Below, one piece after another: positions 30,696 through 63,559 of a stretch of DNA of 64,000 bases. How positions within the stretch are numbered: position 1 is the stretch's first letter; every line of letters begins with the position of its first letter. The translations under genes and the position numbers were made by a program. Under the pieces are notes generated by a model that saw only the letters and a program-made list of their open reading frames with translations, had not been told where the DNA came from and searched no databases. Origin of the DNA: Pseudonocardia sp. (GTDB lineage: Bacteria; Actinomycetota; Actinomycetes; Mycobacteriales; Pseudonocardiaceae); the NCBI GenBank assembly GCA_035540535.1, contig DATLGI010000138.1, forward strand, positions 6,924-70,923, read 5' to 3'.

Positions 30696-30732
30696 ACCCG
30701 ACCGTTCACATCCGACCATCGAGGAGATCCCC

Positions 30733-36501: not shown

Positions 36502-36789
36502 GCGACGGGCGGATCCTGCTGACGGTGATCTCGCCGAGGCGCAGCTCGCCGAGTCACGGTGGTCGGTTGACTGCTCCGGTGCTGGTCAGAGCCGCTCGAG
36601 GTCGCGCCGTGGAACGGTGAGCCGCAGCATGCCGGCAACCCGGACGGGCCGGTCAGCCGCTTGGCACTTCGGGCGCGAAGGTGCCGGGCAGCCTGCGCCG
36701 GGGCTCGGCCAGCGTGAACCGTACGGGAACTGTCGGTGCTCGTCCCTACGCTGTGCTGGCGAGCCCGACCTGGCGCTGAAGGGTTGCTG

Positions 36790-41800: not shown

Positions 41801-42204
41801 AGCGCCACCGTGACACCGACGAGGAGTGGGAGCACTACCGCGACTCCGACGGCAAGTCCGGCGGCCAGAAGGAGAAGCTCGCCTACACCATCCTGGCGGC
41901 CTCCTTGGCCTATCAGTTCGGCCTGGAGTGGGGCGTCGAGCGGTCACGGGACTTCCGGTTCGCTGTGATCGACGAGGCGTTCGGGCGTGGATCGGACGTG
42001 TCGACACGTTATGCCCTCGAACTGTTCGCCAAGCTCGGCCTACAACTGCTGATCGTCACGCCGCTGCAGAAGGTGCACGTGATCGAGTCCTACGTCCGAG
42101 CGATCGGTTTCGTCGACAACCCCACGGGGAGCTACTCGCGGCTCCAGTCGCTGACCATCGAGGAGTTCCACGCCCGTCGGGCCGGCATGGCCCCCGACGG
42201 ATGA
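38800..42204 (+). CDS. jetC: Wadjet JetC (SMC-like ATPase, MksB/EptC)
   Basis: ORF 38800..42204 has Walker [10 protein letters not shown], a long Arg/Glu/Ala/Leu-rich central region, the ABC signature [11 protein letters not shown] and Walker [14 protein letters not shown]. Confidence 0.9.
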
Positions 42205-43352
42205 CCTGCGCCTGGACGACGTCGACGGAGCTGGCGCGGAGGGTCCGCCGACGCTGGGACGACGGGACGCTGCTCTCCGCTCTGGCCGCCGGCGACCCCT
42301 TCCCGGGGCTGGATCTTCCCGTCCGCGGCCCCCATCCGTCGGAGATCGGCGATGACTTGGCCGCGGTGCAGCGCTGGGTCGCCGAGCTGGAGGCGGGCAG
42401 CCGCAACGGCCGGAGCTACGAGCTCGTCCACGCCACCATCGGTGGGCGGCACTTCGGGCGCAACCGGATCCCGGCCCGCGCCCGCGTCACAACCTATGAG
42501 CAGGCATGGCAACTGTTGGGCGTCGCCGCCCATGTGGCCGCGTACCGGCGAATTCTGGATCTGAGTGCATCGGTTCCTGCGGTTCGTTCCTGGGCAGCCG
42601 CCTGCCCGCTACGAGCGCTCGACGTCGCGGACGAGTGGGAGCCGCTCGTCGCCGCCTACTCCTGGTTGGACGCGGCCCGCGGCTCTGGCCGCTACTTGCG
42701 CGAGATCACCGCCCCGGGGGTGGACACGAAGTTCGTCGAGCGGCACCGGTCGGTGCTGAGCCACCTGCTCGGCACCGACCGCTCCGCCAGGGGGTTCCTT
42801 TCCGCGCTGGGACTGCGAGTGAAGCCGGAGACGGTGCGGCTGCGGTTCGATCCCGCCGTATTGGGCATGCCGGCCGCCCTCACCGAGGCGGAGCTGCGGG
42901 TCGAGGAGCTGGCCGCGCTCCCGGCCGCCGTCCGCACGGCAGCGATCATCGAGAATGAGACTACGTACCTCACGGTCCCGGTCCCAAGCAGTGGTGTGGT
43001 CATGTGGGGGAAGGGCTTCGAGGTGAGCCGGGCCGGTGCGTTGCCCTGGCTCCGCGATGCCGACGTGTACTACTGGGGTGACCTCGACACCCACGGTTTC
43101 GCGATCCTCGACCGGCTGCGCGCCTGGCTGCCCTGCTCCGAATCGTTCCTGATGGACCGGGGGACGCTGCTGGCCCACCGCGACCGCTGGGTCCGCGAGG
43201 GATCACCGACGTCGGCAAGCCTCGACCGGCTCAACCCGGACGAGGCCGCCCTGTACCGCGACCTCGTCGCCGACCAACTCGGTGACGGCGTCCGCCTGGA
43301 GCAGGAGCGCATCGACTGGGCGTGGGCGAGTAAACGCATTCCCTACGAATGA
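42201..43352 (+). CDS. jetD: Wadjet JetD (DUF3322 + Toprim-like DUF2220 nuclease subunit, MksG/EptD)
   Basis: ATG at 42201 overlaps the jetC stop (ATGA). It has C-terminal Toprim-like IIENETTYL ... [16 protein letters not shown]. Confidence 0.85.
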
Positions 43353-46793: not shown

Positions 46794-48032
46794 ATGGGTG
46801 GACGAGCCGAGCTGATCATGCTGGCCGGCGGGACCACGCCCGCGGCAGCCGAGGGCGCCGAGCGGGTGATCGACCGGATCCGCGCCGAGGAGCCCCGCAC
46901 GGTGGTGCTGCACCACGACCTGCGCGACGCCGGCCGCGGCCTCGTGCGCCGACGGATGCGGCTCGGCAACGCGGACCAGGTCACCGTGCTCGAGCTCGCG
47001 CACGGCTGCGTGTCGTGCACGCTGCGCGAGGACGTGCTGCCGCTACTGCGCGAGCTCGGGCGCCGCAGACACGTCGAACGGATCGTTCTGCACCTTGATC
47101 CCGTCCTCGAACCCGAGCAGGTGTGCTGGACGGTTCGGCACGTGCTCGTCAACGGCGCACCGGTCACCGACGCGGTCGAGCTGCGCGGGGTGATCACCAT
47201 CCTGGACGCCGAAGCCTGGCTCGCCGACGTCGCCGGCGCCGACGATGTCGCCGACCGCGACCTGGCCGTCCTGCCCGACGACGACCGCACCCTCGCGCAG
47301 CTGGTGGTCGCCCAGGCCGAGTTCGCCGACCTGCTCGTGCACACCGGCGCCGCCGAGCCCTGGCAGGCCGCGCGTACCGAGGCCGTGCTCGCCCGGCTGG
47401 CGCCGTGCGCGGTCCGGCTGCCACTCGACCGGCTCGACCGGCGAGTGCTGCTCGAGCGGCTCCCGGCCGGCGCTCGCCGAGGTGTCACCGACGACCTGCA
47501 CGCAGCGCTGCTGCACGGCCAGCCCCCGCTGCACGCCGACGCCGGCGTGCAGCTGGTGACGTTCAACGCACGCCGCCCGTTCCATCCCGAGCGGTTGCAC
47601 GCCGCGGTCGACGTGCTCCTCGACGGGGTGATCCGAACCCGCGGCCGGATCTGGCTCGCCACCCGGCCCGACGCAGTGCTCTGGCTGGAGTCCGCGGGCG
47701 GTGGCCTGCGGCTCGGGCACGCAGGAGGCTGGCTCGCGGCCGACCCCGAGGCCTGGGAACACGCCGACCCCGAGCGCCGAGCCGCCGCCGCACTGCGCTG
47801 GCACGACCGCTGGGGCGACCGCGCCCAGGAGCTCACCATCCTCGTCCACGACGCGGACCCCGCCGTCGTCGACGCCGGGCTGCGCGAGGCGCTGCTCACC
47901 GACCGCGAGCTGGCCGCCGGTGAGAGCGCCTGGCGTCACTACCCGGATCCCTTCGGCTGGTGGCACACCGACCCCTGCGACGACATCACACCCCAACCGG
48001 TGACCGGACGACACCAGGAGGACCAGGCGTGA
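46794..48032 (+). CDS. CobW/COG0523-family protein with degenerate P-loop
   Basis: ORF 46794..48032 shows the COG0523 pattern ([20 protein letters not shown], a C-terminal CobW_C-like region), but the N-terminus reads [15 protein letters not shown] instead of GxxGxGK[ST]. Confidence 0.75.
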
Positions 48033-50719: not shown

Positions 50720-52246
50720 TCATGCCGAGAACTGTTTGAGCAGCTCCCTGCGCATGATCTTGCCGGTGGACGTCTTGGGCAGATCGTCGACGAAGCGAAC
50801 GAGTCGGGGCCGCTTGTAAGCGGCCAGCGATCGGCCGGCGAACTCGATGAGCTCCTCGTCGGTGGCGGTCGCCCCTGGTGCGAGGACGACGTAGGCGCAG
50901 GCCAGCTCGCCCTTCACCGGGTCCGGCACCGGCCCGGCCGCGACCATCGCCACCGCCGGGTGCGCGGCCAGCACGCGCTCGATCTCGGCGGGGTAGACGT
51001 TGTAGCCGGCACTGTTGATCATGTCCTTGCGCCGGTCGACTACGAAGACGTGCCCGGTGTCGGACATCGTCGCGATGTCGCCGGTGTGCAGCCAGCCGTC
51101 CGGCTCGATCGTCTCCGCGGTGGCCTCGGGCCGATTGTGGTAGCCGAGCATCACCAGCGGGCCGCGCACCATCAGCTCGCCGGGCTCGCCGTACGGGGCG
51201 TCGCGGGTGACGTCGGCGAGATCGGCGATGCGCACCTGCAGCCCCGGCAGCGACACTCCGATCGACCCGAGCACGGGCGGGGCGTGCAGCGCGTGCGTGG
51301 TGCCCAGGCCGGCGATCTCGGTCATCCCCCACAGCTCGATCAGCGGGGCTCCGGAGCGCTCCTGCCAGCGCTGCATGGTCGAGACCGGCATCGTCTGCCC
51401 GCCGACGGTGCACCGGGTGAGGCTCGACAGGTCGGTCCCGGGCAGCGACGGGTCGGCCAGCATTGTCGCGTACATCGCCGGGACGCCCTCGAACATCGTC
51501 GCCCGGTGCTCCGCGATCAGCGTGAGCGCCTCGGCCGGGGCGAAGCGCTCCATCAGCACCACGGTGCCACCGACCATGAAGATCGAGTTGATGACGACGT
51601 TGCCGTAGACATGTGGCGCCGGCAGCGCGGTGACGACGACGTCGGCGGCGGTGCGGCCGTGCATCGTCGCGGTGTGGGCACAGTTGAGCAGCACCGCGCG
51701 GTGCGACTGCACGGCGCCCTTCGGGTGGCCGGTGGTCCCGGACGTGTAGCCGATCGTCGACGGCCCCGCCGGGTCGATCTGCACCTCGGGCACGGAGCCG
51801 TCCGAGCCCAGCAGCTCGGTGAACCCGACCGCTCCCTTCGGCGCGTCACCGAAGGCGACGACCGCGCACGGCCCGGGCAGGTCGCGGGCCAACTCGACCA
51901 CGCCCGCGGCCTGCTGGGCGCTGGTGAACACCGCGGCCGACCTGCAGTCGCGCAGCACGTACGCCAGTTCCTCGGGGGTGAGCATGACGTTGACCGGGTT
52001 GACGACCGCCCCGGCTTTGAGCGCGCCGTGGTAGGCGATGACCCATTCCCAGCGGTTCTGCGTGTACAGCGACACCGGCTGTCCCGGCCGAATCCCGCGG
52101 GCCGCCAGCCCGGCGGCGACGCGGTCGCTCTCCACGTCCAGCTCGCGGAAGGTCAGGGTACGGGCGGCGGTGACCAGCGCGGGCTTGTCCCCGAACCGCC
52201 GTGCGGCCGCCGGCAGGATCCCGGCAGGCGAGACGACGTCGTCCAT
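50720..52246 (-). CDS. AMP-dependent acyl-CoA synthetase/ligase
   Basis: Internal Met of ORF 50720..52285, preceded by a GAGGAGG RBS. It has YTSGTTGHPKG and GWLHTGD motifs. Confidence 0.88.
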   Translation of the reverse strand: MDDVVSPAGILPAAARRFGDKPALVTAARTLTFRELDVESDRVAAGLAARGIRPGQPVSLYTQNRWEWVIAYHGALKAGAVVNPVNVMLTPEELAYVLRDCRSAAVFTSAQQAAGVVELARDLPGPCAVVAFGDAPKGAVGFTELLGSDGSVPEVQIDPAGPSTIGYTSGTTGHPKGAVQSHRAVLLNCAHTATMHGRTAADVVVTALPAPHVYGNVVINSIFMVGGTVVLMERFAPAEALTLIAEHRATMFEGVPAMYATMLADPSLPGTDLSSLTRCTVGGQTMPVSTMQRWQERSGAPLIELWGMTEIAGLGTTHALHAPPVLGSIGVSLPGLQVRIADLADVTRDAPYGEPGELMVRGPLVMLGYHNRPEATAETIEPDGWLHTGDIATMSDTGHVFVVDRRKDMINSAGYNVYPAEIERVLAAHPAVAMVAAGPVPDPVKGELACAYVVLAPGATATDEELIEFAGRSLAAYKRPRLVRFVDDLPKTSTGKIMRRELLKQFSA

Positions 52247-52466
52247 GTGCACCTCCTCGACGCCTCCGCAGTGTCCGGTCCCCACGACGCGACGCCGCTA
52301 TCCAGCACGGACAAGGCGGTCGGGCAGTTTTGTCCGCACCGTCCATCGGCGAGAGTGGAAAGCCACGGCACTGTGACGTCCGCAACGCCGTGCGCCGGGG
52401 CCGTCCACCGCACTCCCTGGTGATCACGCCGGTAGGAGCCACGACCCCAGTTCAAGGAGGAACCTG

Positions 52467-52886
52467 ATGGCCGAAGTGCTGGCCGAGGGCTACAACGTCT
52501 TCGACACCGCCAAGTCCCCCAGCGGCACGATCAAGTACCTGTCCTCGCCCGCGGACGTGATCGGGCTGATCAAGTCCGGCAAGCTGAAGGACCACATCCT
52601 GCTCGTCCGCGGGGGGACGACGACGTTCCTCGCCCCGGCACTGTCGATGGGTGCGATCGGGGTGATCACGATGTCGGGCGCGCCCGAGTCGCACCTCGGG
52701 ATCCTGTCGCGGGAGTTCCAGACCCCGTGCGTGATGACGGCCTACCTGACGAGCAGCGACTCCCGCTACGAGGTCGGCAAGACCGGCGACAGCCACTTCG
52801 AAGAGATCGCGAAGGCCCTCGACGGCCGCCGGGTCCGGCTCGACTGCACCGACCACGAGGTCGGGCGCGTCGTCGCCGACGACTGA
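52467..52886 (+). CDS. stand-alone PEP-utilising-enzyme mobile (swivel/phosphohistidine) domain protein
   Basis: ORF 52467..52886 has ILLVRGGTTTFLAPALSMGAIGVITMSGAPESHLGILSREFQTPCVM, which matches the swivel-domain pattern with the conserved His (codon at 52692-52694). Confidence 0.7.
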   Translation: MAEVLAEGYNVFDTAKSPSGTIKYLSSPADVIGLIKSGKLKDHILLVRGGTTTFLAPALSMGAIGVITMSGAPESHLGILSREFQTPCVMTAYLTSSDSRYEVGKTGDSHFEEIAKALDGRRVRLDCTDHEVGRVVADD

Positions 52887-52920
52887 CACCCATCCCACGA
52901 GGCACGGACAAGGAGCAGAC

Positions 52921-54354
52921 GTGACGACGACCGAGGGCAAGCGCGCCACCTACAAGCAGCGGTACGAGCAGGGTGACGACGGTCTGCGCTTCCAGGAGCT
53001 GACCTACACCGGCAACTTCGTCGGGATGGAGCCCGTCACGGACGGGATCAAGGGCGACCGGATGATGCGCGAGCGCGCCAAGAGCGGTGTGCTCGAGAAG
53101 GTGTCGAAGGAGGACGTCCTCCGCGACCAGTTCACGATCGACGAGCTCAACGACCTCAACAACTACCTGGCCTGGAACATCTGGGACGTGCTGGTCATGC
53201 GCGCCACCGAGGGCGTGAGCGGCATGATCCCCCGCCAGGAGTACGAGATCCTGGCCTTCATGCACGAGTTCTACCGCTGGCCGGAGATCCTGCGCATGGC
53301 CACCGACGAGGTCGGCGGCGGCCAGGGAGTCCTGGACATCGGCGCCACCGCCCGCCGGGAGATCGGCACCAAGGTCAACGCGGTGCACGACTGGTGCATC
53401 GGCGCCGTCGGGTTCGGCATGGGCCGCTGCGGCCTGCTCGCGCTGGAGGTGATCGGCCCGGACGATTACGTCGAGGAGTCCAACGAGATCCTCAAGTTCA
53501 TGCAGCGGATCCTGTGGGGCAAGCGCCAGGACGGCTACATCCTCAACTCCCAGGACAACTACCGCTGCCGCATCCATGAGGCCGACTTCCTCGAGCAGAT
53601 CACCGCGCAGCTCGAGCCGCTGGAAGCCGACAGCCCCAAGCACGGCGCGTTCACCCAGTTCAACGCCGCCGCGGAGCTGCTCTCGTTCCTCGACCACTAC
53701 GACTGCCGGCTCGGCCTCGGCGACACGGGGCCGTACGAGCTGCCGAACGGGCAGCTGCTGATCCTGCGCGACCTCTTCGTCAACGAGGAGGTGTTCCACT
53801 GGAGCGACGTCTGCGACGACGAGGGCCTGCCGCACTGCTACACCCTCGCGCTGACGATCGACCCGGAGAAGATGGCGCTGGCCGAGATCCGGGTGAACGA
53901 CATCTCCACCACCTTCACCCGGCCGAAGAACTACATCGAGGCCATCACCGGCGGTGCGGTGTTCGTCCGGGAGAAGTGGAACACCCCGATGGGCGAGGTG
54001 TACCCGGTCGCGATCGACGATTTGGGCCCGCACCTGGAGCGGGTGCAGAACGCGACGCTGAAGCTCTACGCGAAGACGGCCCGGATGAACCGGCGCGACC
54101 TCATCTGGAACGGCCAGTACGTCTACTACGTCGACATGATCCTCCCGCACCTGCGGCTGGCCGGCGCGTACGAGAAGGCGTGCACGGACTACCAGCTCTG
54201 GGAGGTCGACCAGCGCGTCGCCAACTACTACTACGACATCACCAAGCGCGGCTTCGCCCAGGAGACCGTGCCGCAGAAGATCTTCTCCGGCGCGGGTTAC
54301 CTGCCCTTCTCCGACAACGCCGACCGCCGCCGCTCGAAGTACCGCTGGCTGTAG
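52921..54354 (+). CDS. conserved-looking protein of unknown function (477 aa)
   Basis: ORF 52921..54354 has a GTG start with a GGAG RBS. Its composition is clearly coding (rich in W/Y/F/N/K/I, unlike shadow ORFs). I recognise no motif. Confidence 0.7.
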   Translation: MTTTEGKRATYKQRYEQGDDGLRFQELTYTGNFVGMEPVTDGIKGDRMMRERAKSGVLEKVSKEDVLRDQFTIDELNDLNNYLAWNIWDVLVMRATEGVSGMIPRQEYEILAFMHEFYRWPEILRMATDEVGGGQGVLDIGATARREIGTKVNAVHDWCIGAVGFGMGRCGLLALEVIGPDDYVEESNEILKFMQRILWGKRQDGYILNSQDNYRCRIHEADFLEQITAQLEPLEADSPKHGAFTQFNAAAELLSFLDHYDCRLGLGDTGPYELPNGQLLILRDLFVNEEVFHWSDVCDDEGLPHCYTLALTIDPEKMALAEIRVNDISTTFTRPKNYIEAITGGAVFVREKWNTPMGEVYPVAIDDLGPHLERVQNATLKLYAKTARMNRRDLIWNGQYVYYVDMILPHLRLAGAYEKACTDYQLWEVDQRVANYYYDITKRGFAQETVPQKIFSGAGYLPFSDNADRRRSKYRWL

Positions 54355-54422
54355 ACGCCGGACACCGACGGGCGGCGCGGCACCTCGCCGCGCCGCCCGT
54401 CCTCGTGCAGGAGGACTCCACC

Positions 54423-55043
54423 GTGACAGCGCTCTCCCTGAGCAGGACCGACTACGACGTGCTCAACGCCGTGGTCGTCAAGAAGATGGCCACCGCCGAC
54501 GCGGTGGTGGCGGCCTCGGGTGTGGACGCCGCGCAGGTCTCCGAGATCCTCGCCGCGCTCGAGGGCCGGGGCCTCCTCGTCGTCGCAGGCGACTCGGCGC
54601 TGCCCACGGACGAGGCTGAGCCGGTGCTGATGGAGGTGGCGGCCACCCGGTACTCAGGCGTCCGCGAGGACGCCGACATCGCCCGGCTCGTGGACCGCTT
54701 CGAGACGACCAACGCGCAGTTCCTCACGACGATGTCGTCCTGGCAGCAGATCGACAGCGGCGGCCGCAAGGTGGCCAACGACCACTCCGACCCCGAGTAC
54801 GACGGAAAGGTCATCGACCGGCTGAACAAGCTGGTGGCTCGCCTGACCCCGCTGTTGGACGCACTCGCCGGGCACGACGCGCGGTTCGGCCGCTACCCCG
54901 AACGCTTCGCCATCGCGCTGGCCGCCGTCGACGCCGGGGACCACGACCTGGTGTCGTCCCCGGTCCGCGACTCGGTGCACAACATCTGGTTCGAGTTCCA
55001 CGAGGATCTGCTACGGACCCTCGGCAAGGTCCGGACCGAATGA
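54423..55043 (+). CDS. protein of unknown function with N-terminal winged-helix-like segment (206 aa)
   Basis: GTG at 54423 in the frame of ORF 53976..55043, with an AGGAGG RBS upstream. The stop overlaps the next start (ATGA). Confidence 0.6.
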   Translation: MTALSLSRTDYDVLNAVVVKKMATADAVVAASGVDAAQVSEILAALEGRGLLVVAGDSALPTDEAEPVLMEVAATRYSGVREDADIARLVDRFETTNAQFLTTMSSWQQIDSGGRKVANDHSDPEYDGKVIDRLNKLVARLTPLLDALAGHDARFGRYPERFAIALAAVDAGDHDLVSSPVRDSVHNIWFEFHEDLLRTLGKVRTE

Positions 55044-57559
55044 GCAGCCCGAGCACGACGACGCCTGGCCCGGGCGACGTCGCCGATGGGGTGTTCACCC
55101 GCAGGTTCGCCGAGGCCGATCCCGCAGACGTGGGGTGGCTCGGTGGCAAGGGCGCGGGCCTGGCCCGCATGACTCAGCAGGGCCTGCGCGTGCCGCCCGG
55201 CTACGTCATCGGGACCGACGCCTGCCGTCGCTACCTCGCGGAGCGGGCGCTCCCCGCGGGACTCGACGACGAGGTGTTCGCCCGGCTGTCCGAGCTGGAG
55301 CGGGCCGCCGGCAAGACCTTCGGCGGCGGTCCGGTGCCGCTGCTGCTCTCGGTGCGGTCCGGCGCGCCGATCTCCATGCCCGGGATGATGGACACCATCC
55401 TCAACCTCGGACTGAATCGCACCGCTGCGATCGCGCTCGGGGAGGCGACGGGGGACGCGCGGTTCGTCGCCGACCTCGTCACCCGCTTCCACGCGATGTA
55501 CGCCGAGACCGTGCTGGACGCAACGGATCCCGGCGAGGGCATCGGCGAGCTGGTCGCGCAGGTCGGCGCGGGTGACGACCCGGGCGCCGTCTACGACCGA
55601 ATCTGGGACGCCTGCCAGCGGGCGCTGGCCGACGACACCGGCGATTCGGTGCCCGACGACCCACGGGAGCAGCTGCTGGGCGCGGTGGAGGCGGTGTTCC
55701 GCTCCTGGAACACCCGCCGAGCCCGCACCTACCGCGACCACCACAAGATCCCGCACGACCTCGGGACCGCCGTGGTCGTGCAGTCCATGGTGTTCGGCAA
55801 CCTCTCGGCGGACTCGGGCTCCGGTGTGGTGTTCACCCGCAACCCGGCGACCGGGGAGCCGGGCCTGTTCGGCGAGTACCTCGCGCACAGCCAGGGTGAG
55901 GACGTCGTCGCCGGGACCCGCACGCCCGATCCTGTCACCGAGGCCCTCGCGCCCGCGGTACTCGACGAGCTGCGCGTGACCTGCGCCGATCTCGAGCGAA
56001 GCCAGGGCGACGTCCTCGACATCGAGTTCACCGTCGAGCGGTCCGCGCTGTACTTCCTGCAGGTGCGCAGCGCAAAGCGCACGCCCGAAGCGGCGGTGCG
56101 AATCGCGGCCGACTTCCTCGCCGAGGGCAGTGTCGCGCCGTCGAAGGCGATACGGAACGTCTCGGCGGCCCAGGTGCGACAGGTGCAGCGGCCCGGGTTC
56201 GACCCCGACGAGGTCGAGAAGGCGCGGGCCGGCGGGCGACTGCTCACGAGGGGGATCGGAGCCTGCCCGGGTCAGGTCGGCGGCGCGCTGGTGCTCGACC
56301 CGGACCGGGCGAAGGCGGCCGCTGACGCCGGTCGGGACGTCATCCTCGCCCGTCCGGTCACGAGCCCCGCCGACCTGCACGGAATGATCGCCTCGCGCGG
56401 TATCGTCACGGCCACCGGTGGGTCGACGAGCCACGCCGCCGTCGTCGCGCGGGCGCTCGGCACAGCCTGCGTGGTCGGCGCCGGTGAGATCCGCGTCGAC
56501 GAGGCCGCTCGCGTGCTGACCGTCGGCGGGCGGACCCTGGCCGAGGGCGACGAGGTGTCCCTGGACGGAGCGACCGGCGAGCTGTTCGCCGGGCGCTTCG
56601 CGACGTCGACGCCGGCGGCCGCGACGGGGGCTCTGGCGGCGCTGCTGGGCATCGCCTCCCGCGCCAGCGCTTGCTCAGTGCTCAGCCGCGTCACCCTGCC
56701 CGGCGACGTCGAGCCCGCCCGCGAGGCCGGAGCCGACGGGCTGGTGACCGCGGTGGACGACGTACTGGCCGCCACCGGTCACCTCGACGGCCTCGTGGCG
56801 GGTCTGCTCGGCGCGAGCGCGGACGGGTTCGACGGTATCGCGGCAATGGTGGAGGCCGAGTTCACGCCGCTGCTGGCGGTCGCCGGCGACCTGGAGGTGG
56901 GCGTCCGGGCGATCGATCTCGTCGCCGACGAGGCGCGCGAGCTGCTCCAGCAGACGGCCATGACGACCCGGCACCCCGAGCTGTCGGTCCCACTGGGTCG
57001 CCCGGAGCTGGTGCGGGCACAGCTGGAGGGGCTGGCCCGGGCCGTGCGGGAGTCCGGGGGGCGCGCCCGCGTCCACCTCGCCCTGCGACACGTCAGCGAC
57101 CCGGCCGAGGCCCGCGCACTGCGCGCGCTCGCCGGCGAGGTCGGGTCAGCGGTCTCCATCGGGACTTATCTGACCAGCCCGCGGGCAGCCCACGGCGCCG
57201 TCGACATCGCGGCGGCCAGCGACGTCGTGTGGCTCGAGGTGCGCACGCTGCAGGCGGCGATGTTCGGCATCCCCGCGCGGCAGCTGCTCACCGCCGAACC
57301 GCTCGACGGCTACCTGCGGCGCGGGCTGCTCGGCTGCGACCCGCGCACCACGCTCGACCCCTCGGTGCAGCGCCTGCTTGCCGATGTCGCGGCGGCGGCC
57401 GACACCGCCGGGCGCCGGGTCGGGATGCGGCTGTCCGGGGAGGTGTCCGAGGCGGTCGCCGCGCAGCTGTACGCCCTGGGCTTCCGCCGCTTCGCCGTCG
57501 ACGCTGCGGAGACGCGCCCGGTGGTCCTCGCGCTCGGTAAAGCGGCTCTCGCGGCCTGA
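55040..57559 (+). CDS. pyruvate,phosphate dikinase-like protein (ATP-grasp + phosphohistidine domain; degenerate C-terminal domain)
   Basis: ORF 55040..57559 has GGKGAGLARM, LLLSVRSGAPISMPGMMDTILNLGLN, GEYLAHSQGEDVVAGTRTP and GGSTSHAAVVARALG. The C-terminal ~300 aa lack the PPDK catalytic motifs. Confidence 0.8.
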   Translation: MSSPSTTTPGPGDVADGVFTRRFAEADPADVGWLGGKGAGLARMTQQGLRVPPGYVIGTDACRRYLAERALPAGLDDEVFARLSELERAAGKTFGGGPVPLLLSVRSGAPISMPGMMDTILNLGLNRTAAIALGEATGDARFVADLVTRFHAMYAETVLDATDPGEGIGELVAQVGAGDDPGAVYDRIWDACQRALADDTGDSVPDDPREQLLGAVEAVFRSWNTRRARTYRDHHKIPHDLGTAVVVQSMVFGNLSADSGSGVVFTRNPATGEPGLFGEYLAHSQGEDVVAGTRTPDPVTEALAPAVLDELRVTCADLERSQGDVLDIEFTVERSALYFLQVRSAKRTPEAAVRIAADFLAEGSVAPSKAIRNVSAAQVRQVQRPGFDPDEVEKARAGGRLLTRGIGACPGQVGGALVLDPDRAKAAADAGRDVILARPVTSPADLHGMIASRGIVTATGGSTSHAAVVARALGTACVVGAGEIRVDEAARVLTVGGRTLAEGDEVSLDGATGELFAGRFATSTPAAATGALAALLGIASRASACSVLSRVTLPGDVEPAREAGADGLVTAVDDVLAATGHLDGLVAGLLGASADGFDGIAAMVEAEFTPLLAVAGDLEVGVRAIDLVADEARELLQQTAMTTRHPELSVPLGRPELVRAQLEGLARAVRESGGRARVHLALRHVSDPAEARALRALAGEVGSAVSIGTYLTSPRAAHGAVDIAAASDVVWLEVRTLQAAMFGIPARQLLTAEPLDGYLRRGLLGCDPRTTLDPSVQRLLADVAAAADTAGRRVGMRLSGEVSEAVAAQLYALGFRRFAVDAAETRPVVLALGKAALAA

Positions 57560-57615: not shown

Positions 57616-58341
57616 TCACACCAGCAGGCCCTCCCGCAGGCGGGCGAGCTCGTGGTCGGTGATCCCGCGCGAGTGGGCCCAGCCGGCAGCGCCCCCGTGG
57701 CGGGAGTCGAGCGCGGCGAGGAAGCCGGTGATGGTGTGCTCCTCGGCGTCGTAGACCTCGGGCGGCACCGTCGCCATGTGGGCGCTGTAGTGCGGCCAAC
57801 CGCGGAAGCGTTCGACGATCCGCGCCATGGCGGGTCCGCTGCGCAGGTAGTCGGCCACGATGTCGTCGTCGTCCACGCCGAGCAGGCGCAGCAGCAGCGC
57901 GGTCACCAGGCCGGTCCGGTCCTTGCCGGCCGCGCAGTGCACGAGCACCGGCCGGCCGGCCAGCGCGCACACGATCCGCACGACCGTCGCGACTTGCGAG
58001 GTCGGCGACCCGACGTGCATGAGGTAGAACGCCAAGCTCTGCTCGCGCGGCGGCAGGTCGCTCGCGGGGGCCTCGGACAGCGGTGCGTTCAGGTAGCAGA
58101 CCGGCGTGGCCGCGAGCGGCCCGCGCCCCTGCTCGACGGCCTCCGGGCCGCGGCGCAGGTCGACGACGAGCTCCAACCCGAGCTTCTCGACGAGGTAGGC
58201 GACGTCGTCGGCGGTCAACGCCTGCAGGGTGTCGCTGCGGAACAGCGCGCCGGACCGGACCTGCAGGTCCGGTCCGGCGCGGAGACCACCGAGATCACGG
58301 AAGTTGAAGGCGCCGCGGAGCCCGCTCACGGAATCGGTCAC
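57616..58341 (-). CDS. tyrosine-protein-phosphatase-like protein (Y_phosphatase3 family, CX5R)
   Basis: Lies in the frame of ORF 57616..58734 with GTG 58341 after a GAGGAG RBS (alternative GTG at 58398). It has NFRDLGG and the HCAAGKDRTG active-site loop. Confidence 0.8.
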   Translation of the reverse strand: MTDSVSGLRGAFNFRDLGGLRAGPDLQVRSGALFRSDTLQALTADDVAYLVEKLGLELVVDLRRGPEAVEQGRGPLAATPVCYLNAPLSEAPASDLPPREQSLAFYLMHVGSPTSQVATVVRIVCALAGRPVLVHCAAGKDRTGLVTALLLRLLGVDDDDIVADYLRSGPAMARIVERFRGWPHYSAHMATVPPEVYDAEEHTITGFLAALDSRHGGAAGWAHSRGITDHELARLREGLLV

Positions 58342-58411: not shown

Positions 58412-59383
58412 TCACGGGGCGCACAGCCGGCGGATGGCGGCCAGCAACTCGTCATCCGCGGTGGTTCGCGCGCCGGCGGCGACGCTCGTGGTGCCGGTGA
58501 CTCGAGCGGCTGCCGCGCGCCGGCGATCGCGCCGGACGGCGGCTGCCCGGGCGACGACGTCATCACCCGTGCCGTCGGACCCGTCGCACCCGCAGCCGCA
58601 TGCCGACGCCGGCGCGCCCTGCTGGTCGACGGCGGCAACCGGTACGGCGCACGCGCCGGTGGCGGGAAGGGCGGCGGCGTCCCCCAGCAGGTACGGGGCG
58701 ATCTCCTGCGGCCAGAGCGCGACGAACTCGGCACCGGCGGCGGTGAGCTCCTCCACGGAGTGCATGCCCCAGGCCACGCCGATGACCCGGATCCCGACCT
58801 CGAGCGCGTCCCGCACGTCGCCCGCGGTGTCGGTCACCAGCACGGTGCTGGAGCCGTCGAGGTCCGCCGGCCGGCCGGCCTCGTCGTAGTCCGCACTGCA
58901 GCGGCGGCCGAAGCCGCTGCCGGCGTCGGCGAGGAAGGCGCGCATGGCCGTGCGCTTGTCCGGGGCTGCGTCGCCGCCGAAGACGTGCGCGAAGCAGAAC
59001 GCGATCCCGTTCGACTCCAGGACGCGGCGGAGCACCTGCGTCGCGTTGGACGACATCACCGCGAGCGTGCAGTCGGCAGCGAGACGGCGCACGACGTCGC
59101 CCACGCCGGGGACCAGCGGCGGCGTGTACTCCTCGCGCAACAGGCGCAGGAACGCGTCCTTCACCTCGCCGGCCTGCGCCTCGTCGCGGCACAGCTTCGC
59201 GATCGAGGCGTAGACGTTGCCCTGGAACAGGTCGAAGTACTGTTCGGGGCGATCGACGCCGAGCCCGAACCGCTTGTTGATCTTCTCGAACACCTCCCAC
59301 GACGCCACGCGTGTCTGGACGAGGGTGCCGTCGAGGTCGAAGATCACTGCCCGGACCGGTGACCGGCCGGTGCCGGCGGTCAT
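58412..59383 (-). CDS. HAD family hydrolase with ~90-aa C-terminal extension
   Basis: Internal Met of ORF 58412..59530 overlaps the upstream stop (ATGA). It has the FDLDGTLV motif I. The tail is low-complexity Ala/Gly/Cys-rich and ends ADDELLAAIRRLCAP. Confidence 0.8.
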   Translation of the reverse strand: MTAGTGRSPVRAVIFDLDGTLVQTRVASWEVFEKINKRFGLGVDRPEQYFDLFQGNVYASIAKLCRDEAQAGEVKDAFLRLLREEYTPPLVPGVGDVVRRLAADCTLAVMSSNATQVLRRVLESNGIAFCFAHVFGGDAAPDKRTAMRAFLADAGSGFGRRCSADYDEAGRPADLDGSSTVLVTDTAGDVRDALEVGIRVIGVAWGMHSVEELTAAGAEFVALWPQEIAPYLLGDAAALPATGACAVPVAAVDQQGAPASACGCGCDGSDGTGDDVVARAAAVRRDRRRAAAARVTGTTSVAAGARTTADDELLAAIRRLCAP

Positions 59384-60384
59384 GCGCGTGCGGCGGCGTG
59401 CACCCGGTCGTAGGCGGTGCCGAGCTCGCCCAGGCCGATGAAGTCCATGCACTCGCCGTGGCCGACCTGCCCGTTCACCGTCCAGCGCAGCAGGCAGTTG
59501 TGCCCCACCGTCCCCGGCCAGGCCTGCCACGGGAACGTGGTGAGCGCAGTGCCCTCGAGCTCCCAGGTCCGGTCCGCCGAGTCCGTGACCGTCAGCTGGA
59601 TCGCCTCCGGGTAGAAGTCATGGCGGTATGTGGTGCCCCCGCCCGCCTTGAGGCCGTAGACCTTGCCGTGGTCGAGCACGTAGCCGTGGGTCATCGTCTG
59701 GGTCGAGGGTGCGTCCGGTCCGCCGTCGGTGGAGAAGTCGCAGATGACGTGGATCGCCAGGTCGGGGGAGACGTGGGCGTGCTGCCACGACAGCCGTGAG
59801 GTCTGGCGCTCGGCGCGGACCCCCCAGCTGTGGTCCATCGTCGACACGCAGTCGATCGGGGTTGTCGCGCCGCGCAGGACGATCTCGCCCTCGAAGCGGC
59901 CCGTCTGGTCGAAGTGCCCCGCGTAGGCGTGGCCCCAGGTCTTGTCCATGTCCCGCCCGGCGGCCATCGGGTCCATCTCCGGGTCGTTGATGTCGTAGGG
60001 CTCCATCAGCGCCGAGTAGCGGAAGTGCAGCTCCAGGCCGGCGGCGGGATCGGAGTAGTCGACGTCCCACACCTTGTTGGGCTCGGCGCATCGGACCTTC
60101 AGCCCGTTCGCCAGCGCGTAGTCGAGCAGGTTCGACGGCTGCGGCACCACGAGGTGCTGCCACGCGTCCCAGTAGTCCGCGGCCCACGGCATGGTCACCC
60201 GCCGGGAGTTGACCGACACCGTCGAGCCGACCACTCCGATCGGCTCGCGGAACAGTCCGTAGACACCGATGTTCATCGGCCGGTCGGCGTCCTGGCCGGC
60301 GTACAGGCCGAAGTAGTTGGTCTCGGCCCAGAGCGGGTCGTCTGTCGTCGGGGGGTGGAACTGCGCGTCCTCGGGACGGATCAC
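59380..60384 (-). CDS. hypothetical protein (possibly AttH/CrtC-like beta-rich fold)
   Basis: Lies in the frame of ORF 59380..60504 with GTG 60384 after a GAGGAGG RBS. The composition is coding-like (W/Y/H/D rich). The family assignment is uncertain. Confidence 0.6.
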   Translation of the reverse strand: MIRPEDAQFHPPTTDDPLWAETNYFGLYAGQDADRPMNIGVYGLFREPIGVVGSTVSVNSRRVTMPWAADYWDAWQHLVVPQPSNLLDYALANGLKVRCAEPNKVWDVDYSDPAAGLELHFRYSALMEPYDINDPEMDPMAAGRDMDKTWGHAYAGHFDQTGRFEGEIVLRGATTPIDCVSTMDHSWGVRAERQTSRLSWQHAHVSPDLAIHVICDFSTDGGPDAPSTQTMTHGYVLDHGKVYGLKAGGGTTYRHDFYPEAIQLTVTDSADRTWELEGTALTTFPWQAWPGTVGHNCLLRWTVNGQVGHGECMDFIGLGELGTAYDRVHAAARA

Positions 60385-60571: not shown

Positions 60572-60865
60572 ATGCAGCTGGCCAAGGTGCTCGGCCAGGT
60601 CGTCTCGACGGTCAAGGAACCCGGCCTGGACCGGTTCACGCTGCTCCTGGTGCAGGAGGCCTCCGGGGCTGACCCCGAGCGGACGAGCGGTGCCGCATAC
60701 GTCGCGGTCGACCTCGTCGGCGCCGGCGTCGGTGAGGTGGTTCTCGTCGCCACGGGCGGCGCGGCCCGGGTCGCGGCCGGCGCCGACGCCCCGACCGACC
60801 GAGCCGTCGTCGCCATCGCCGACACGGTGGTGCGGTCCGGCTCGGTCGCCTACCGCAAGTCATGA
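60572..60865 (+). CDS. bacterial microcompartment vertex protein (EutN/CcmL family, BMV)
   Basis: ORF 60572..60865 reads [15 protein letters not shown] ... [23 protein letters not shown] ... [11 protein letters not shown]. Confidence 0.9.
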
Positions 60866-61251
60866 CCACCGCAGCGGCTCTGCCCACTCATTCCGCCGTC
60901 GGACGAGACCACCTGGAGGACGACATGGCTCCCACCACAGCAGGCGCGAACGGGGGGACCACCATGCGCGGTGCCCTCGGCCTGATCGAGACGAAGGGCC
61001 TCGTCGGGGCCATCGAGGCCGCGGACGCGATGGTGAAGGCGGCCAACGTGCAGGTCGTCGGGCACCGTGAGATCGGTGGCGGCCTCGTGACGGTGATGGT
61101 GCGAGGCGACGTCGGGGCCGTCAAGGCCGCGACCGACGCCGGCGCGGTGGCCGCGGGCAAGGCCGGCGAGGTCGTGTCGGTACACGTCATCCCGCGCCCG
61201 CACGACGAGACCGAGGGCATCCTCGCCGTCCTCACCCGCCCGAAGGGCTGA
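60862..61251 (+). CDS. BMC-H shell protein (PduA/EutM/CcmK-type BMC domain) with N-terminal extension
   Basis: ORF 60862..61251 overlaps the BMV stop (ATGA). It has [30 protein letters not shown] ... [19 protein letters not shown] ... SVHVIPRPH. Confidence 0.92.
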
Positions 61252-61336: not shown

Positions 61337-62737
61337 ATGACCACACTCGTCGAACCAGGGCTGGATGCCGACCTCGCCGCGCTCGCCGACGTGCGAGCCA
61401 AGGCTCGTGCCGCCCGCCGAGCCTTCGAGGCGCTGGAAGGCGCGGACCAGGAGACGCTGGACCGTTACGTCCGCGCGATGGCGCTGGCCGGCACCAAGGC
61501 CGCCGAGGAGCTCGCCCGGCTGGCCGTGGACGAGACCGGATACGGCGTCTACGAGCACAAGATCTACAAGAACCGGTACAACACGGGTTTCGTCGCCAGG
61601 TGGATGCTGGAGCGCCGCGCCGTCGGTGTGCTCTGGGTGGACGACGCCGCTCGCGTCACCGCCGTCGGCACCCCGATGGGAGTGATCGCCGGCATCATCC
61701 CGGTCACCAACCCGACGTCGACCGCACTGTTCAAGAGCCTGGCCGCCGTGAAGTCGGGCAACGCGATCGTGCACGCCCCGCATCCACGGGCGGCTCGGTG
61801 CACGCTCCGAACGGCGGAGATCATGGCCGACGCCCTGGTGTCCGCCGGTGCCCCGGAGGGCCTGGTGTCCTGTCTGGTCGAGCCGTCGTTGGCGTCGACG
61901 CAGGAGCTGATGCGCAGGCCGGAGGTCGCACTGGTGCTCGCCACGGGCGGGCCCGGCATGGTGCGCGCGGCGTACTCGAGCGGGAAGCCGACCATCGCGG
62001 TCGGGGCGGGAAACGTGCCCGCCTACGTCGGCGCCAGCGTTCCGGACGCGGCCGAGGCCGCCGAAATGATCATCACGTCGAAGTCGTTCGACAACGGAAC
62101 GGCGTGTGTGGCCGAGCAGTCCGTCGTCGTCGTCGACGGCGTGGCGCCGGCCTTCCTCGCCGCGTTCGAGGCGAAGGGCGCGTACTGCCTCAACGCACCG
62201 CAGCAGGCGGCGCTCGTCCGGGTGCTGTTCGACGAGCGGGGCGCGCTGCGTCCGGCGTCGGTCGGGCAGACCGCGGTGCGGCTGGCCGAGCTCGCCGGTT
62301 TCACCGTGCCCTCGACGACGCGGGTCCTGGCAGCGGAGCTCGACGCCGTCGGCCTGGAGACGCCGCTCTCACGGGAGATCCTCGGCCCGGTCCTGTCCGT
62401 GTACCGCGTCCGGGATGCGGCGGCCGGTCTCGCGCGCTGCCGCGAGGTCCTGGCGCTGGACGGCGAAGGCCACACCGCCGCCGTGCACGCCGGCGACCCC
62501 GAGGAGATCGCACCGTTCGGCGCCCTGCCCGCCGGCCGGATCGTGATCAACACGCCGGCTCTGTTCGGCGGCATGGGCTACTCCACCGAGGTCGACCCCT
62601 CGTTCCAGCTCGGCACCGGCACGTGGAGCGGCTCGATCTGCTCGGACAACGTCACGCCGCTGCACCTGATCAACATCAAGCGGATCGCCCATGAGGTGCG
62701 GCCCTGGCGAACCGTCTACGACCCGGTGGAGCTCTAG
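61337..62737 (+). CDS. acylating (CoA-dependent) aldehyde dehydrogenase, EutE/PduP-like
   Basis: ORF 61337..62737 has IIPVTNPTST and the FDNGTACVAEQS catalytic Cys region. Confidence 0.88.
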   Translation: MTTLVEPGLDADLAALADVRAKARAARRAFEALEGADQETLDRYVRAMALAGTKAAEELARLAVDETGYGVYEHKIYKNRYNTGFVARWMLERRAVGVLWVDDAARVTAVGTPMGVIAGIIPVTNPTSTALFKSLAAVKSGNAIVHAPHPRAARCTLRTAEIMADALVSAGAPEGLVSCLVEPSLASTQELMRRPEVALVLATGGPGMVRAAYSSGKPTIAVGAGNVPAYVGASVPDAAEAAEMIITSKSFDNGTACVAEQSVVVVDGVAPAFLAAFEAKGAYCLNAPQQAALVRVLFDERGALRPASVGQTAVRLAELAGFTVPSTTRVLAAELDAVGLETPLSREILGPVLSVYRVRDAAAGLARCREVLALDGEGHTAAVHAGDPEEIAPFGALPAGRIVINTPALFGGMGYSTEVDPSFQLGTGTWSGSICSDNVTPLHLINIKRIAHEVRPWRTVYDPVEL

Positions 62738-63559
62738 GTGATGGCGCTGGCCTGCGACCCGCGGGAGCTGCTCGCGGCGGCGTCCGCCCGGATGGGTGCC
62801 GAGCCCGTGCTGCCGGCCGGGCCGCTGCACGATGTCCGCGTCGGAGTCGACCTGGGTACCGCGAGCTGCGTCCTCGTCGTCCTCGACGCCGACGGCGCGC
62901 CCGTATGGCTCGACGCGCACCCGTCCGGGGCGTTGCGCGACGGCGTGGTCGTCGATTTCGCCCGCGCCATCGACACGGTGCGTCGGCTGCGCGAGGCCGC
63001 GGAGACCGCGCTCGGCGTCGAGCTGCGGCGCACCGCGACCGCCTACCCGCCGTGCATCCCGGCGGAGGACGCCCGGGCCTGCACCTACGTCTGCGAGTCG
63101 GCGGGCTTCGCCGACGTCGTCCTCGTCGACGAGGTGACCGCCGCGCAGCGGACACTCGAGGTGGGCGACGGCGTCGTCGTCGACGTCGGCGGTGGTTCGA
63201 CCGGCGTCGGGGTGTTCCGCGACGGTCGCCTCGTTCAGCTCGACGACCGCCCCGGCGGCGGGCACCACCTCGATCTCGTCCTGGCTGGGGCGCTGCGCAT
63301 CCCGCTGGACGAGGCCGAACCCTGGAAGCGCGCACATCCCGCTGACGCGTTGCCCATCCTGGTGCCCGGCCTGCAACGCATCGCCGAGAACGTGCGTGCC
63401 CTGACCCGAGGCGCCGACGACCTGCCGCTGCACCTCGCCGGCGGCGCCCTCATGATCGCCGGCGCGGGTGACGTGCTGGCCTCCTACCTGGAGCGACCTG
63501 TCGTGACCTATCCGCACGCCCTGCTGATCACCCCCCTCGGCATCGCGAGGTCGGCATGA
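62738..63559 (+). CDS. eutJ: EutJ-like actin/Hsp70-fold protein
   Basis: ORF 62738..63559 has VGVDLGTAS and VVDVGGGSTGV phosphate-binding motifs. Confidence 0.85.
   Translation: MMALACDPRELLAAASARMGAEPVLPAGPLHDVRVGVDLGTASCVLVVLDADGAPVWLDAHPSGALRDGVVVDFARAIDTVRRLREAAETALGVELRRTATAYPPCIPAEDARACTYVCESAGFADVVLVDEVTAAQRTLEVGDGVVVDVGGGSTGVGVFRDGRLVQLDDRPGGGHHLDLVLAGALRIPLDEAEPWKRAHPADALPILVPGLQRIAENVRALTRGADDLPLHLAGGALMIAGAGDVLASYLERPVVTYPHALLITPLGIARSA

Follow-up and report, generated by a model that had tools for sequence, protein, structure and literature searches.

The stretch of DNA analysed here (hereafter the window) comprises 64,000 nucleotides of high-GC DNA (about 72%) from Pseudonocardia sp. 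(assembly GCA_035540535.1, contig DATLGI010000138.1, positions 6,924 to 70,923 of the forward strand), and at positions 52467–57559 it carries an operon of four genes, g1 to g4, that is probably the source of the enzyme preparing the substrate of a bacterial microcompartment (BMC) encoded next to it. The data suggest that the first three proteins are the separated pieces of what is a single polypeptide elsewhere, that the fourth is a remnant of pyruvate phosphate dikinase (PPDK) which retains the ATP-using half of that enzyme, and that the four together define a widespread and so far unannotated branch of the phosphoenolpyruvate (PEP)-utilising enzymes. The adjacent BMC is of the catalogued MIC1 type, for which no signature enzyme has been listed, and the quartet may be its missing activation, or "signature", module.

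The four open reading frames (ORFs) were confirmed on the + strand, with a gene-like distribution of GC over the codon positions (GC3 0.84–0.95). The gene g1 (52467..52886, 139 aa) starts with ATG and has a strong ribosome-binding site, AAGGAGG, 7 nt 5' of it; g2 (52921..54354, 477 aa) and g3 (54423..55043, 206 aa) both start with GTG, preceded by AAGGAG and AGGAGG, respectively; and g4 (55040..57559, 839 aa) overlaps g3 by ATGA at 55040–55043, by which the two genes are predicted to be translationally coupled. The co-directional operon with good ribosome-binding sites that the first-pass annotation had described is thus present, with Shine–Dalgarno motifs seen for g1 to g3. The 68-nt spacer between g2 and g3 holds a GC-rich stem-loop (54373..54399, + strand; GGCGGCGCGG-cacctcg-CCGCGCCGCC as read from the sequence) with a perfect 10-bp stem and a 7-nt loop, and this hairpin could act as a stabilising or attenuating element of the mRNA, setting the ratio of the subunits. 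A scan of the locus for promoters and terminators yielded nothing informative.

The relation of g4 to PPDK is strong in one part of the protein and eroded in the other. Pfam assigns to it PPDK_N (PF01326, E 2.4e-43) and PEP-utilizers (E 4e-20), the ATP-grasp motifs GGKG and SVRSGA..SMPGMMDT are retained, and the swivel motif GGSTSHAA is present with His465 invariant in 22 orthologs, in agreement with what had been read from the letters alone. Residues 22–568 match the PPDK of C. symbiosum with a phmmer E of 1.7e-129. The C-terminal 280 aa taken alone found no match among the PDB sequences, and PEP-utilizers_C reached only E 0.018, under the Pfam cut-off; the profile of the 22 orthologs, however, aligns along the full length of PPDK (against 9PZL), which argues that the third domain of g4, a remnant of about 270 aa, descends from the PEP/pyruvate barrel. 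In this alignment (C. symbiosum numbering) R561 is replaced by V or A, E745 by T and N768 by R, C831 falls in a deletion and the position of D769 is variable among the orthologs, while R617, retained as R623 of g4, is the sole survivor among the residues checked, all of which we take to belong to the PEP/pyruvate site. The invariant positions of the orthologs are dense in the ATP-grasp and swivel domains and number about ten in the third domain. The NCBIfam models draw the same line: g4 stays under the cut-off of the PPDK equivalog TIGR01828 (557 bits, 843 required), it exceeds that of NF004531 ("short PPDK"; 511 bits, 456 required) over residues 33–577, and the models of rifampicin phosphotransferase, PigC and RedH respond to the shared domains only, far under their cut-offs. 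NF004531, which originates from PRK05878, is presumably the family of M. tuberculosis Rv1127c/VadK. Because R561, E745, N768, D769 and C831 are lost, g4 cannot be a normal PPDK, and its PEP/pyruvate domain is, as judged from these replacements, a catalytically dead remnant. The earlier preference for a split kinase akin to PEP synthase over a PPDK of central metabolism therefore gains support from the failure of g4 in exactly this domain.

The other three proteins belong together. The protein g1 consists of a PEP-utilizers mobile domain and nothing else (PF00391, E 1.6e-7), and its His76, within GAPESHLGILSREF, is invariant in 18 orthologs and aligns with His465 of g4; the stand-alone phosphohistidine swivel domain initially proposed for g1 was thus confirmed. 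An exhaustive HMMER search brought out distant relatives of g2 at 27–46% identity, and among these the boundaries between the three genes disappear: two proteins of 777–794 aa (P0129 and P0138) are fusions of a swivel, a g2-like region and g3, two others (P0131 and P0160) are fusions of g2 and g3, and in three more (P0144, P0243 and P0252) a swivel stands N-terminal to the g2-like region. The homology of g3 to the C-terminal ~160 aa of the fused proteins is detected by BLASTP (2e-16 for P0129 and 7e-7 for P0160). Since they are fused in distant relatives, g1, g2 and g3 would form one enzyme, and they appear to be the split version of a single polypeptide. The same fusions bear on the nature of g3, in which residues 3–53 form a weak winged helix of TrmB/MarR_2 type (26.6 bits against a cut-off of 25.6). 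A stand-alone transcription factor was considered for g3 and rejected, because g3 is the C-terminal domain of fused homologs; it is probably a domain or subunit of the enzyme and not a free-standing regulator. Paralogous systems on Rhodococcus plasmids contain short PPDKs of 570–579 aa that lack the third domain and are operonic with g3-like and g2-like genes, and the adjacency of g3 and g4 is kept there at 30% and 46% identity. What recurs is a PPDK remnant for ATP loading, accompanied by a g3-like protein, together with a swivel joined to a g2-like domain.

Within this unit g2 is both the most conserved and the least recognisable component. No sequence match was found for it in Pfam, NCBIfam or the PDB (phmmer), a profile built from 35 members of the g2 superfamily had no match in the PDB either, and hhalign against the family of the PPDK-like g4 revealed no relation to the PPDK domains. 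Foldseek with the AlphaFold2 (AF2) model of g2 returned nothing better than E = 1; the model is of low confidence (pLDDT 65, pTM 0.61), so that a new fold is not proven. The first-pass annotation had found neither g2 nor g3 nameable, and this holds for g2, whereas g3 has its marginal winged-helix match. Homologs of g2 in 80 genomes of Actinobacteria, Proteobacteria and Vulcanimicrobiota are 74–91% identical, and their hosts include Pseudonocardia, Nakamurella, Amycolatopsis, Actinomycetospora, Rhodococcus and Gordonia on the one side and Bradyrhizobium, Methylocella, Xanthobacter, Variovorax and one Vulcanimicrobiota genome on the other. The median identity of the proteobacterial orthologs to the proteins of the window is 77% for g2, 67% for g1, 39% for g4 and 35% for g3. 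Because the operon partners diverge far more, the conservation of g2 reflects a constraint on g2 itself and not a recent transfer of the whole operon, and at about 77% between phyla, as against 35–39% for operon partners, it is among the most conserved orphans that one is likely to meet. The g2 superfamily comprises 257 clusters at E <= 1e-3, and the residues that are near-invariant across it include R94, Y108, R263, G270-P271-Y272, R283 and Y402. Taken with the fusions, this pattern suggests that g2 is most likely the substrate-binding, phosphoryl-acceptor subunit.

The gene neighbourhood of g2 was followed in a scan of species-representative genomes, which gave 182 relatives; the best 80 of the 182 loci were analysed with 10-kb flanks, and co-conservation was counted in the 55 loci that have at least 9 kb on both flanks. 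Here g1 is found in 55 loci, g3 in 54 and g4 in 53, and the quartet is accordingly co-conserved across two phyla. Its neighbours are nearly as constant: a DUF7064/65 gene in 48 loci, a HAD-family phosphatase in 48, BMC shell genes in 46, a CoA-acylating aldehyde dehydrogenase (AldDh) in 47 and an EutJ-like gene in 45, with Y_phosphatase3 (21) and the AMP-binding acyl-CoA synthetase (14) less constant. The connection to a metabolosome suggested earlier is borne out by the shell and AldDh genes in about 46–47 of the 55 loci and by its recurrence in two gene arrangements, and on this a functional link may be supposed. In Actinobacteria the neighbours lie downstream and are convergent; in Proteobacteria they lie upstream and are co-directional, with the shell genes divergent, and the gene set equals the actinobacterial one. 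Clustering of all ORFs adds to the conserved set a Zn-alcohol dehydrogenase (Zn-ADH), a malate/lactate dehydrogenase (MDH/LDH)-like protein, a BMC-T shell protein and a PucR/GAF regulator. Of the seven loci without DUF7064 within 10 kb, six have the BMC locus inverted downstream, and the gene would there be beyond the flank; in the inverted arrangement of R. oxybenzonivorans plasmid pRB98 (locus L083) it stands about 13 kb from g2. Four loci without a BMC were mapped, in Methylocella silvestris, Xanthobacter, Allosphingosinicella and Paraburkholderia (L063, L066, L080 and L089), and in these a single cluster holds the Zn-ADH, an acyl-CoA ligase, an NAD-type aldehyde dehydrogenase, DUF7064, HAD, the quartet and the regulator. 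The AMP-binding acyl-CoA synthetase is co-operonic with the quartet in these four and is an optional member of the gene set. The NCBIfam names for the CoA ligase, alcohol dehydrogenase (ADH) and aldehyde dehydrogenase (ALDH) are generic and give no clue to the substrate, and inspection of the loci revealed neither prpC nor prpD.

A departure from the complete quartet is seen in a Vulcanimicrobiota metagenome-assembled genome (L074, 9110–16300), where g1 and g2 stand with DUF7064, HAD and BMC genes, tblastn finds no g3 or g4, and g2 is followed by a BMC-H gene and by ORFs of 319, 465 and 544 aa, all three of them unrelated. This locus possibly uses a different ATP-loading partner.

In the window the quartet is met head-on by three genes of the − strand: a Y_phosphatase3-family phosphatase (57616..58341, start codon approximate; PF13350, E 5e-51), which is convergent with g4, a HAD-family phosphatase (58412..59383, HAD_2/Hydrolase domains) and a 334-aa DUF7064/DUF7065 protein (59380..60384; PF23212, PF23213), whose stop codon overlaps the start of the HAD gene by ATGA. 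The convergent "phosphatase operon" noted before is therefore real; its description was incomplete, as it also holds the DUF7064/65 gene, the most informative neighbour of the quartet. The AF2 model of this protein (pLDDT 92.7) is an AttH-like double beta-barrel, and its top Foldseek matches are 9G4C, 9FZN and 9G2I, structures of 25-phosphosteroid lyase (25-PSL) that became public in January 2026 (E 1.4e-13, probability 1.0, TM 0.64/0.60, 17% identity), followed by AttH (2ICH), kievitone hydratase and fungal pericyclases; the sequence profile of the family had no match in the PDB. On the strength of this model the DUF7064 protein may be a phosphoester C–O lyase. An ATP-dependent kinase first converts a tertiary alcohol to its phosphoester and 25-PSL then splits off the phosphate, so that the two enzymes dehydrate the alcohol between them, and the group-transfer potential measured for the tertiary phosphoester is about that of ATP (Keq 0.34); a similar handling of tert-butanol has been suggested (PMC7411048, PMC8449060, PMC11061730). 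A transfer potential as high as this would rationalise the use of a dikinase, which by spending two anhydride bonds would make such a phosphorylation irreversible.

The HAD phosphatase, whose nearest solved relatives are phosphoglycolate-phosphatase-like proteins, carries a further sign of the compartment. In 41 of 41 BMC-linked loci it ends in a low-complexity tail of 80–130 residues with a terminal amphipathic helix, [DE]ELLxA[VI]RR[VI], whereas the helix is absent in all four BMC-less loci, where HAD ends 16–46 residues past its catalytic core. In the window this C-terminal helix, DDELLAAIRRLCAP, is encoded at ~58415–58456 (− strand), 3' of the linker. It has the expected signature of a BMC encapsulation peptide and is our candidate for one. 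No BMC-specific extension was found in the quartet or DUF7064 proteins. The second phosphatase, 3' of HAD, varies in family with the genus, being Y_phosphatase3 or, in the Gordonia and Rhodococcus loci, of SurE type.

The microcompartment genes start at 60572, so that the distance of about 3 kb given for them at the outset was correct. On the + strand there follow a BMC-P (EutN/CcmL) shell pentamer (60572..60865; PF03319, E 3.6e-24), a BMC-H shell hexamer (60862..61251; PF00936, E 5e-28), a CoA-acylating AldDh of the EutE/AdhE type (61337..62737; PF00171) and an EutJ/MreB-like protein of the BMC locus (62738..63559; MreB_Mbl and FtsA domains). The AldDh is matched by the NCBIfam models of acetylating acetaldehyde dehydrogenase with E ~1e-138 to 1e-145, under their curated cut-offs, and a look-up of the EutJ-like protein intended to extend the locus gave no match. 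The MIC1 gene set present in the window thus comprises BMC-P, BMC-H, AldDh, the EutJ-like protein, HAD and Y_phosphatase3; the remainder (BMC-T(dp), the MDH/LDH-like protein and Zn-ADH) lies past the window end and is present in the syntenic loci of pRB98 and Pseudonocardia benzenivorans (L088). On the other side of the quartet an AMP-binding acyl-CoA synthetase (50720..52285, − strand; PF00501, PF13193) is divergent from g1.

The assignment to MIC1 follows the published BMC trees, in the excerpts of which two shell proteins bear the label MIC1, the BMC-T(dp) of Pseudonocardia DSM 43832 and the BMC-H of Rhodococcus ACS1; next to the latter stands the BMC-H of Rhodococcus S2-17, whose own label is cut off in the excerpt (Sutter 2021, PMC8217296). 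As far as the available parts of the catalogues go, MIC1 is among the metabolosome types listed without an aldehyde-generating signature enzyme (Axen 2014, PMC4207490; Sutter 2021, PMC8217296), its AldDh has no encapsulation peptide and is closest to the AldDh of MIC2, and RMM1 is the next closest characterised type to MIC2 (Sutter 2021, PMC8217296). The same parts of both papers (PMC4207490, PMC8217296) make no mention of a PPDK-like quartet, of a DUF7064 lyase-like fold or of a HAD encapsulation peptide. MIC1 has been described as actinobacterial, while the quartet-linked loci collected here include proteobacterial versions. With a candidate module at hand, consisting of a dikinase, a lyase-like protein and an encapsulated phosphatase with its candidate encapsulation peptide, the question of what MIC1 does becomes testable.

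Taken together, these observations lead us to propose that a split dikinase produces a phosphoester from which a lyase-like protein and an encapsulated HAD phosphatase generate an aldehyde within the MIC1 compartment, a general scheme that we consider moderately probable. The quartet would be a cytosolic, two-part, PPDK-derived dikinase, in which the ATP-grasp domain of g4 loads phosphate from ATP onto the swivel histidine, ATP probably being converted to AMP, and the dead third domain probably serves for docking. Via the g1 swivel the phosphoryl group would reach the site on g2 and then the hydroxyl of a small metabolite, and it is as the resulting phosphoester that the substrate would enter the compartment. 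There the DUF7064 protein would eliminate the phosphate or bring about a rearrangement through a carbocation, and together with the encapsulated HAD would release phosphate; the release is placed inside MIC1 because HAD carries the candidate encapsulation peptide. The aldehyde may arise directly, from a diol-type substrate through an enol or by a hydride shift, or via a primary or allylic alcohol oxidised by the Zn-ADH, and the acylating AldDh would trap it as acyl-CoA. Small tertiary or vicinal alcohols, such as 2-methyl-1,2-propanediol, 1,2-propanediol or 2-methyl-3-buten-2-ol, are the candidate substrates.

In a more specific form, which we put forward only tentatively, the quartet, the DUF7064/65 protein and the encapsulated HAD would carry out a cofactor-independent, ATP-driven dehydration or isomerisation of a small tertiary or vicinal alcohol, with neither B12 nor a glycyl radical, and this would be the MIC1 signature system. 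The same system would then operate in the BMC-less operons of Methylocella, Xanthobacter, Bradyrhizobium and Paraburkholderia, and g2 would represent a new fold of phosphoryl-acceptor domain, defining a superfamily of split dikinases. Were phosphorylation followed by elimination in this way, the ATP-dependent dehydration recently discovered in the anaerobic degradation of steroids would extend to small molecules in aerobic soil bacteria, which would be relevant to how fuel oxygenates, diols and biogenic volatile alcohols are broken down.

Several points weigh against the proposed scheme. From sequence, gene context and predicted structures we infer which way phosphate is transferred, that g2 is the acceptor, what chemistry the lyase-like protein performs, which steps are placed inside the shell and, at candidate level, the substrate. 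For the acceptor role of g2 the evidence consists of the fusions and the conservation, the AF2 model being poor (pLDDT 65) and matching nothing; the likeness of the DUF7064 protein to 25-PSL is at the level of the fold (17% identity, no profile match), and this fold includes hydratases and pericyclases. A kinase and a lyase would need no phosphatase, yet HAD and a second phosphatase are conserved, and the scheme leaves unexplained why HAD, and not the lyase-like protein, bears the targeting helix, why two swivel domains (g1 and that of g4 itself) are needed and what g3 does. A few genomes, moreover, have the quartet with none of these partners in the surrounding 10 kb. Finally, the paralogs linked to biotin carboxylase point to enol-phosphate chemistry as an alternative, and the sole characterised relative of g4, M. 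tuberculosis VadK, has been proposed to be regulatory (PMC13400623).

Both the principle of the swivel-histidine dikinase and the BMC logic of a kinase followed by phosphate release are already known. With PPDK itself (C. symbiosum, PDB 1KBL/9PZL) g4 shares the ATP-grasp, the swivel with GGSTSHAA and the barrel-derived third domain; it differs in the loss of the site residues and in working with three further proteins, among them a second swivel and, as a subunit of 477 aa, the unrelated g2. Phenylphosphate synthase (PpsABC), rifampicin phosphotransferase and PigC/RedH have in common with it the logic of an ATP-grasp, a swivel histidine and a non-pyruvate acceptor. Dikinases of the PpsABC type consist of several subunits and include a small third protein; the quartet likewise splits the ATP module (g4) from the module of histidine carrier and acceptor (g1, g2 and g3), which presumably act jointly, but g2 has no detectable homology to the acceptor domains of PEP-utilising enzymes. 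To the pair 25-hydroxysteroid kinase (25-HSK) and 25-PSL of Sterolibacterium denitrificans the system is linked by the combination of a phosphorylating enzyme with a protein of the 25-PSL fold and by phosphate as the leaving group. However, 25-HSK is a 40-kDa member of a phosphotransferase family which converts ATP to ADP, is unrelated to g1–g4 and is not clustered with its own lyase, and the substrate of that pair is a steroid side chain, whereas the context of the quartet (BMC, HAD, ADH, ALDH) points to a small metabolite. In the RMM1/AAUM type of BMC a 1-amino-2-propanol kinase and a phospho-lyase provide propionaldehyde for an acylating AldDh, and the same logic is proposed here for the quartet; that kinase is of the APH type and the lyase has the fold of pyridoxal phosphate-dependent class-III aminotransferases, families other than those of the quartet and DUF7064, and there is no amino chemistry here.

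The comparison with VadK (Rv1127c) is of special interest, since like g4 it is a PPDK remnant without pyruvate/PEP chemistry and has an operonic partner of about 200 aa, Rv1126c (201 aa), as g4 has g3. A search with a g3-like paralog for a link between g3 and Rv1126c returned only close actinomycete orthologs. VadK, a truncated PPDK, phosphorylates itself on histidine but is incapable of the PPDK reaction (PMC13400623). In contrast to VadK, g4 keeps a degenerate third domain, has the partners g1 and g2 and lies in a locus with genes for a lyase-like protein, a phosphatase and a BMC, and unlike the role proposed here for g4, VadK is proposed to regulate methylcitrate-cycle enzymes by protein–protein contact. 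Our results nevertheless suggest viewing the truncated PPDKs of actinomycetes, the virulence factor VadK included, as what may be the ATP-loading halves of split dikinases. The absence of a characterised function for this gene combination, claimed in the first-pass annotation, agrees with the literature searched, in which we found no description of the acceptor subunit, the split architecture, the links to a 25-PSL-like protein and to MIC1, or the HAD encapsulation peptide.

Paralogous clusters related to the quartet occur on plasmids in other genetic company. On pROB02 of Rhodococcus opacus B4 (L084, 989–16875) a fusion of swivel, g2 and g3 with 793 aa and a short PPDK of 570 aa are accompanied by a P450, a ferredoxin, a reductase, an aldehyde dehydrogenase, a Zn-ADH, an ADP-forming CoA ligase, two APH/EcKL-type kinases, a tyrosine-phosphatase-family protein and a 372-aa protein that is weakly DUF7064-like (hhalign E 4e-4). 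Plasmid pA of R. pyridinivorans (L090, 15668–25230) carries a swivel, a 525-aa g2-like protein, an AMP-binding enzyme, a g3-like protein and a short PPDK, operonic with genes for a biotin carrier, a biotin carboxylase and a carboxyltransferase, and this module may be a new ATP-dependent carboxylation system; its g3-like protein is 67–99% conserved among the matches listed, in Rhodococcus, Amycolatopsis, Pseudonocardia and others, often in genomes that have the MIC1 quartet. On plasmid RPME01 of Methylibium petroleiphilum PM1 (L085, 10369–17406) DUF7064/65, a 415-aa g2-like protein, a 153-aa unknown protein, a swivel, a MarR-like g3 and a PucR/GAF regulator are found with no PPDK-like gene nearby and with insertion sequence (IS) elements upstream. 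Immediately next to this remote version of the module, the annotation names a B12-binding protein, an AMP-binding protein, MeaB and a member of the methylmalonyl-CoA mutase family, genes that we take to be the 2-hydroxyisobutyryl-CoA mutase cluster (hcm/hcl/meaH) of the methyl tert-butyl ether (MTBE)/tert-butanol pathway, and the position of the module is a hint at the substrate.

Further variation concerns single loci. In pRB98 a carboxyltransferase, a biotin carboxylase and a MaoC hydratase adjoin the BMC; the trio, which presumably resembles the mycobacterial methylcrotonyl-CoA carboxylase cluster AccD1-AccA1-Rv2499c, was not found near the quartet in other loci. A regulator with MimR_N-like, AAA-lid and Fis-HTH domains stands at the far end of the MIC1 locus in P. 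benzenivorans (L088, 1–1173), and a similar one (cluster c48) lies 5' of the aldehyde dehydrogenase, CoA ligase and quartet operon in Gordonia/Williamsia loci (L058, L071 and L073). Such MimR_N/AcoR-like regulators, as well as pairs of a Baeyer–Villiger monooxygenase (BVMO) and an esterase, are placed beside a few loci only and are not general.

The best surviving alternative to the phosphoester-to-aldehyde scheme, though in our opinion an unlikely one, is the formation of an enol phosphate, in which the quartet would retain chemistry of the PPDK type but, instead of pyruvate, take a small ketone (acetone or acetol, for example) and phosphorylate its enolate oxygen, in the manner of phenylphosphate synthase or of the first half-reaction of acetone carboxylase; the enol phosphate would then be used by the downstream enzymes. 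The energetics of a dikinase suit high-energy enol phosphates, as is generally known from PPDK and PEP synthase, and the biotin-dependent carboxylase genes of the R. pyridinivorans module, together with the wide conservation of its g3-like protein in the same genera, would fit such chemistry. The MimR_N-like or AcoR-like regulators flanking some loci agree with a ketone, MimR being the acetone-responsive activator of mimABCD in mycobacteria, and so does the BVMO and hydrolase pair upstream of the quartet in pRB98, with a similar pair about 22 kb upstream in the window. Nevertheless, across the 80 loci no carboxylase was found within 10 kb of the MIC1-type quartet, the sole case being that of pRB98, where it lies some 16 kb away from g2 at the distal end of the locus. 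Moreover, no sensible route leads from an enol phosphate via an AttH-fold enzyme and a phosphatase to an aldehyde, only back to the ketone, and the substrate of 25-PSL, the enzyme that the DUF7064 protein resembles most in structure, is an alkyl (tertiary) phosphoester and no enol phosphate.

Quite improbable, in our view, is a regulatory phosphorelay in which a VadK-like g4 phosphorylates g1 and thereby controls the enzymes of the BMC/propionyl-CoA pathway, or their transcription through the winged helix of g3, with no metabolite being phosphorylated. It draws on the passing of the short-PPDK cut-off by the N-terminal two-thirds of g4, on the winged-helix match of g3, which exceeds the Pfam cut-off, and on VadK, which autophosphorylates on His, is proposed to modulate methylcitrate-cycle enzymes and is aided in its solubility by its operonic partner Rv1126c (PMC13400623). 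Yet a C-terminal domain of fused enzymes, which is what g3 is, would be atypical for a DNA-binding regulator, and the loci have their own dedicated PucR/GAF regulator. The conservation of g2 across phyla (77%) and the catabolic linkage fit a catalytic subunit better, and even where no BMC exists to be regulated the quartet still shares operons with ADH, ALDH and CoA ligase.

The reading as an ordinary central-metabolism PPDK or PEP synthase that has acquired accessory proteins, to which the strong likeness of g4 residues 22–568 to the C. symbiosum enzyme might point, is effectively refuted at the sequence level by the loss of the Mg2+, pyruvate and PEP site residues, the score far under the TIGR01828 cut-off, the few invariant C-terminal positions among the orthologs and the catabolic, BMC-linked context.

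Other features of the window lie at a distance from the operon. A regulator with GAF, AAA-lid and Fis-HTH domains (AcoR/MimR-like; 27196–29472, − strand) has divergent from it an FMO-like/Baeyer–Villiger-type monooxygenase (29175–30695) and an alpha/beta hydrolase (30442–31548), so that the region 27196–31548 looks like a ketone-to-ester-to-alcohol module; the corresponding pair of pRB98 is directly upstream of its quartet operon. A PhaC-type polyhydroxyalkanoate synthase gene is located at 21304–23178 (+ strand). Between 46308 and 46748 (− strand) the window encodes a paralog of ribosomal protein S18 with an N-terminal extension, adjoining a CobW/COG0523 GTPase (46794–48032), a pairing typical of zinc-starvation (Zur) regulons. 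Finally, a complete anti-plasmid condensin system of the Wadjet/JetABCD type occupies 36718–43352 on the + strand, with JetA (DUF3375) at 36718–38217, JetB (DUF4194/MksE) at 38214–38807, JetC (SbcC-like ATPase) at 38716–42204 and JetD (DUF3322 + JetD_C) at 42201–43352.

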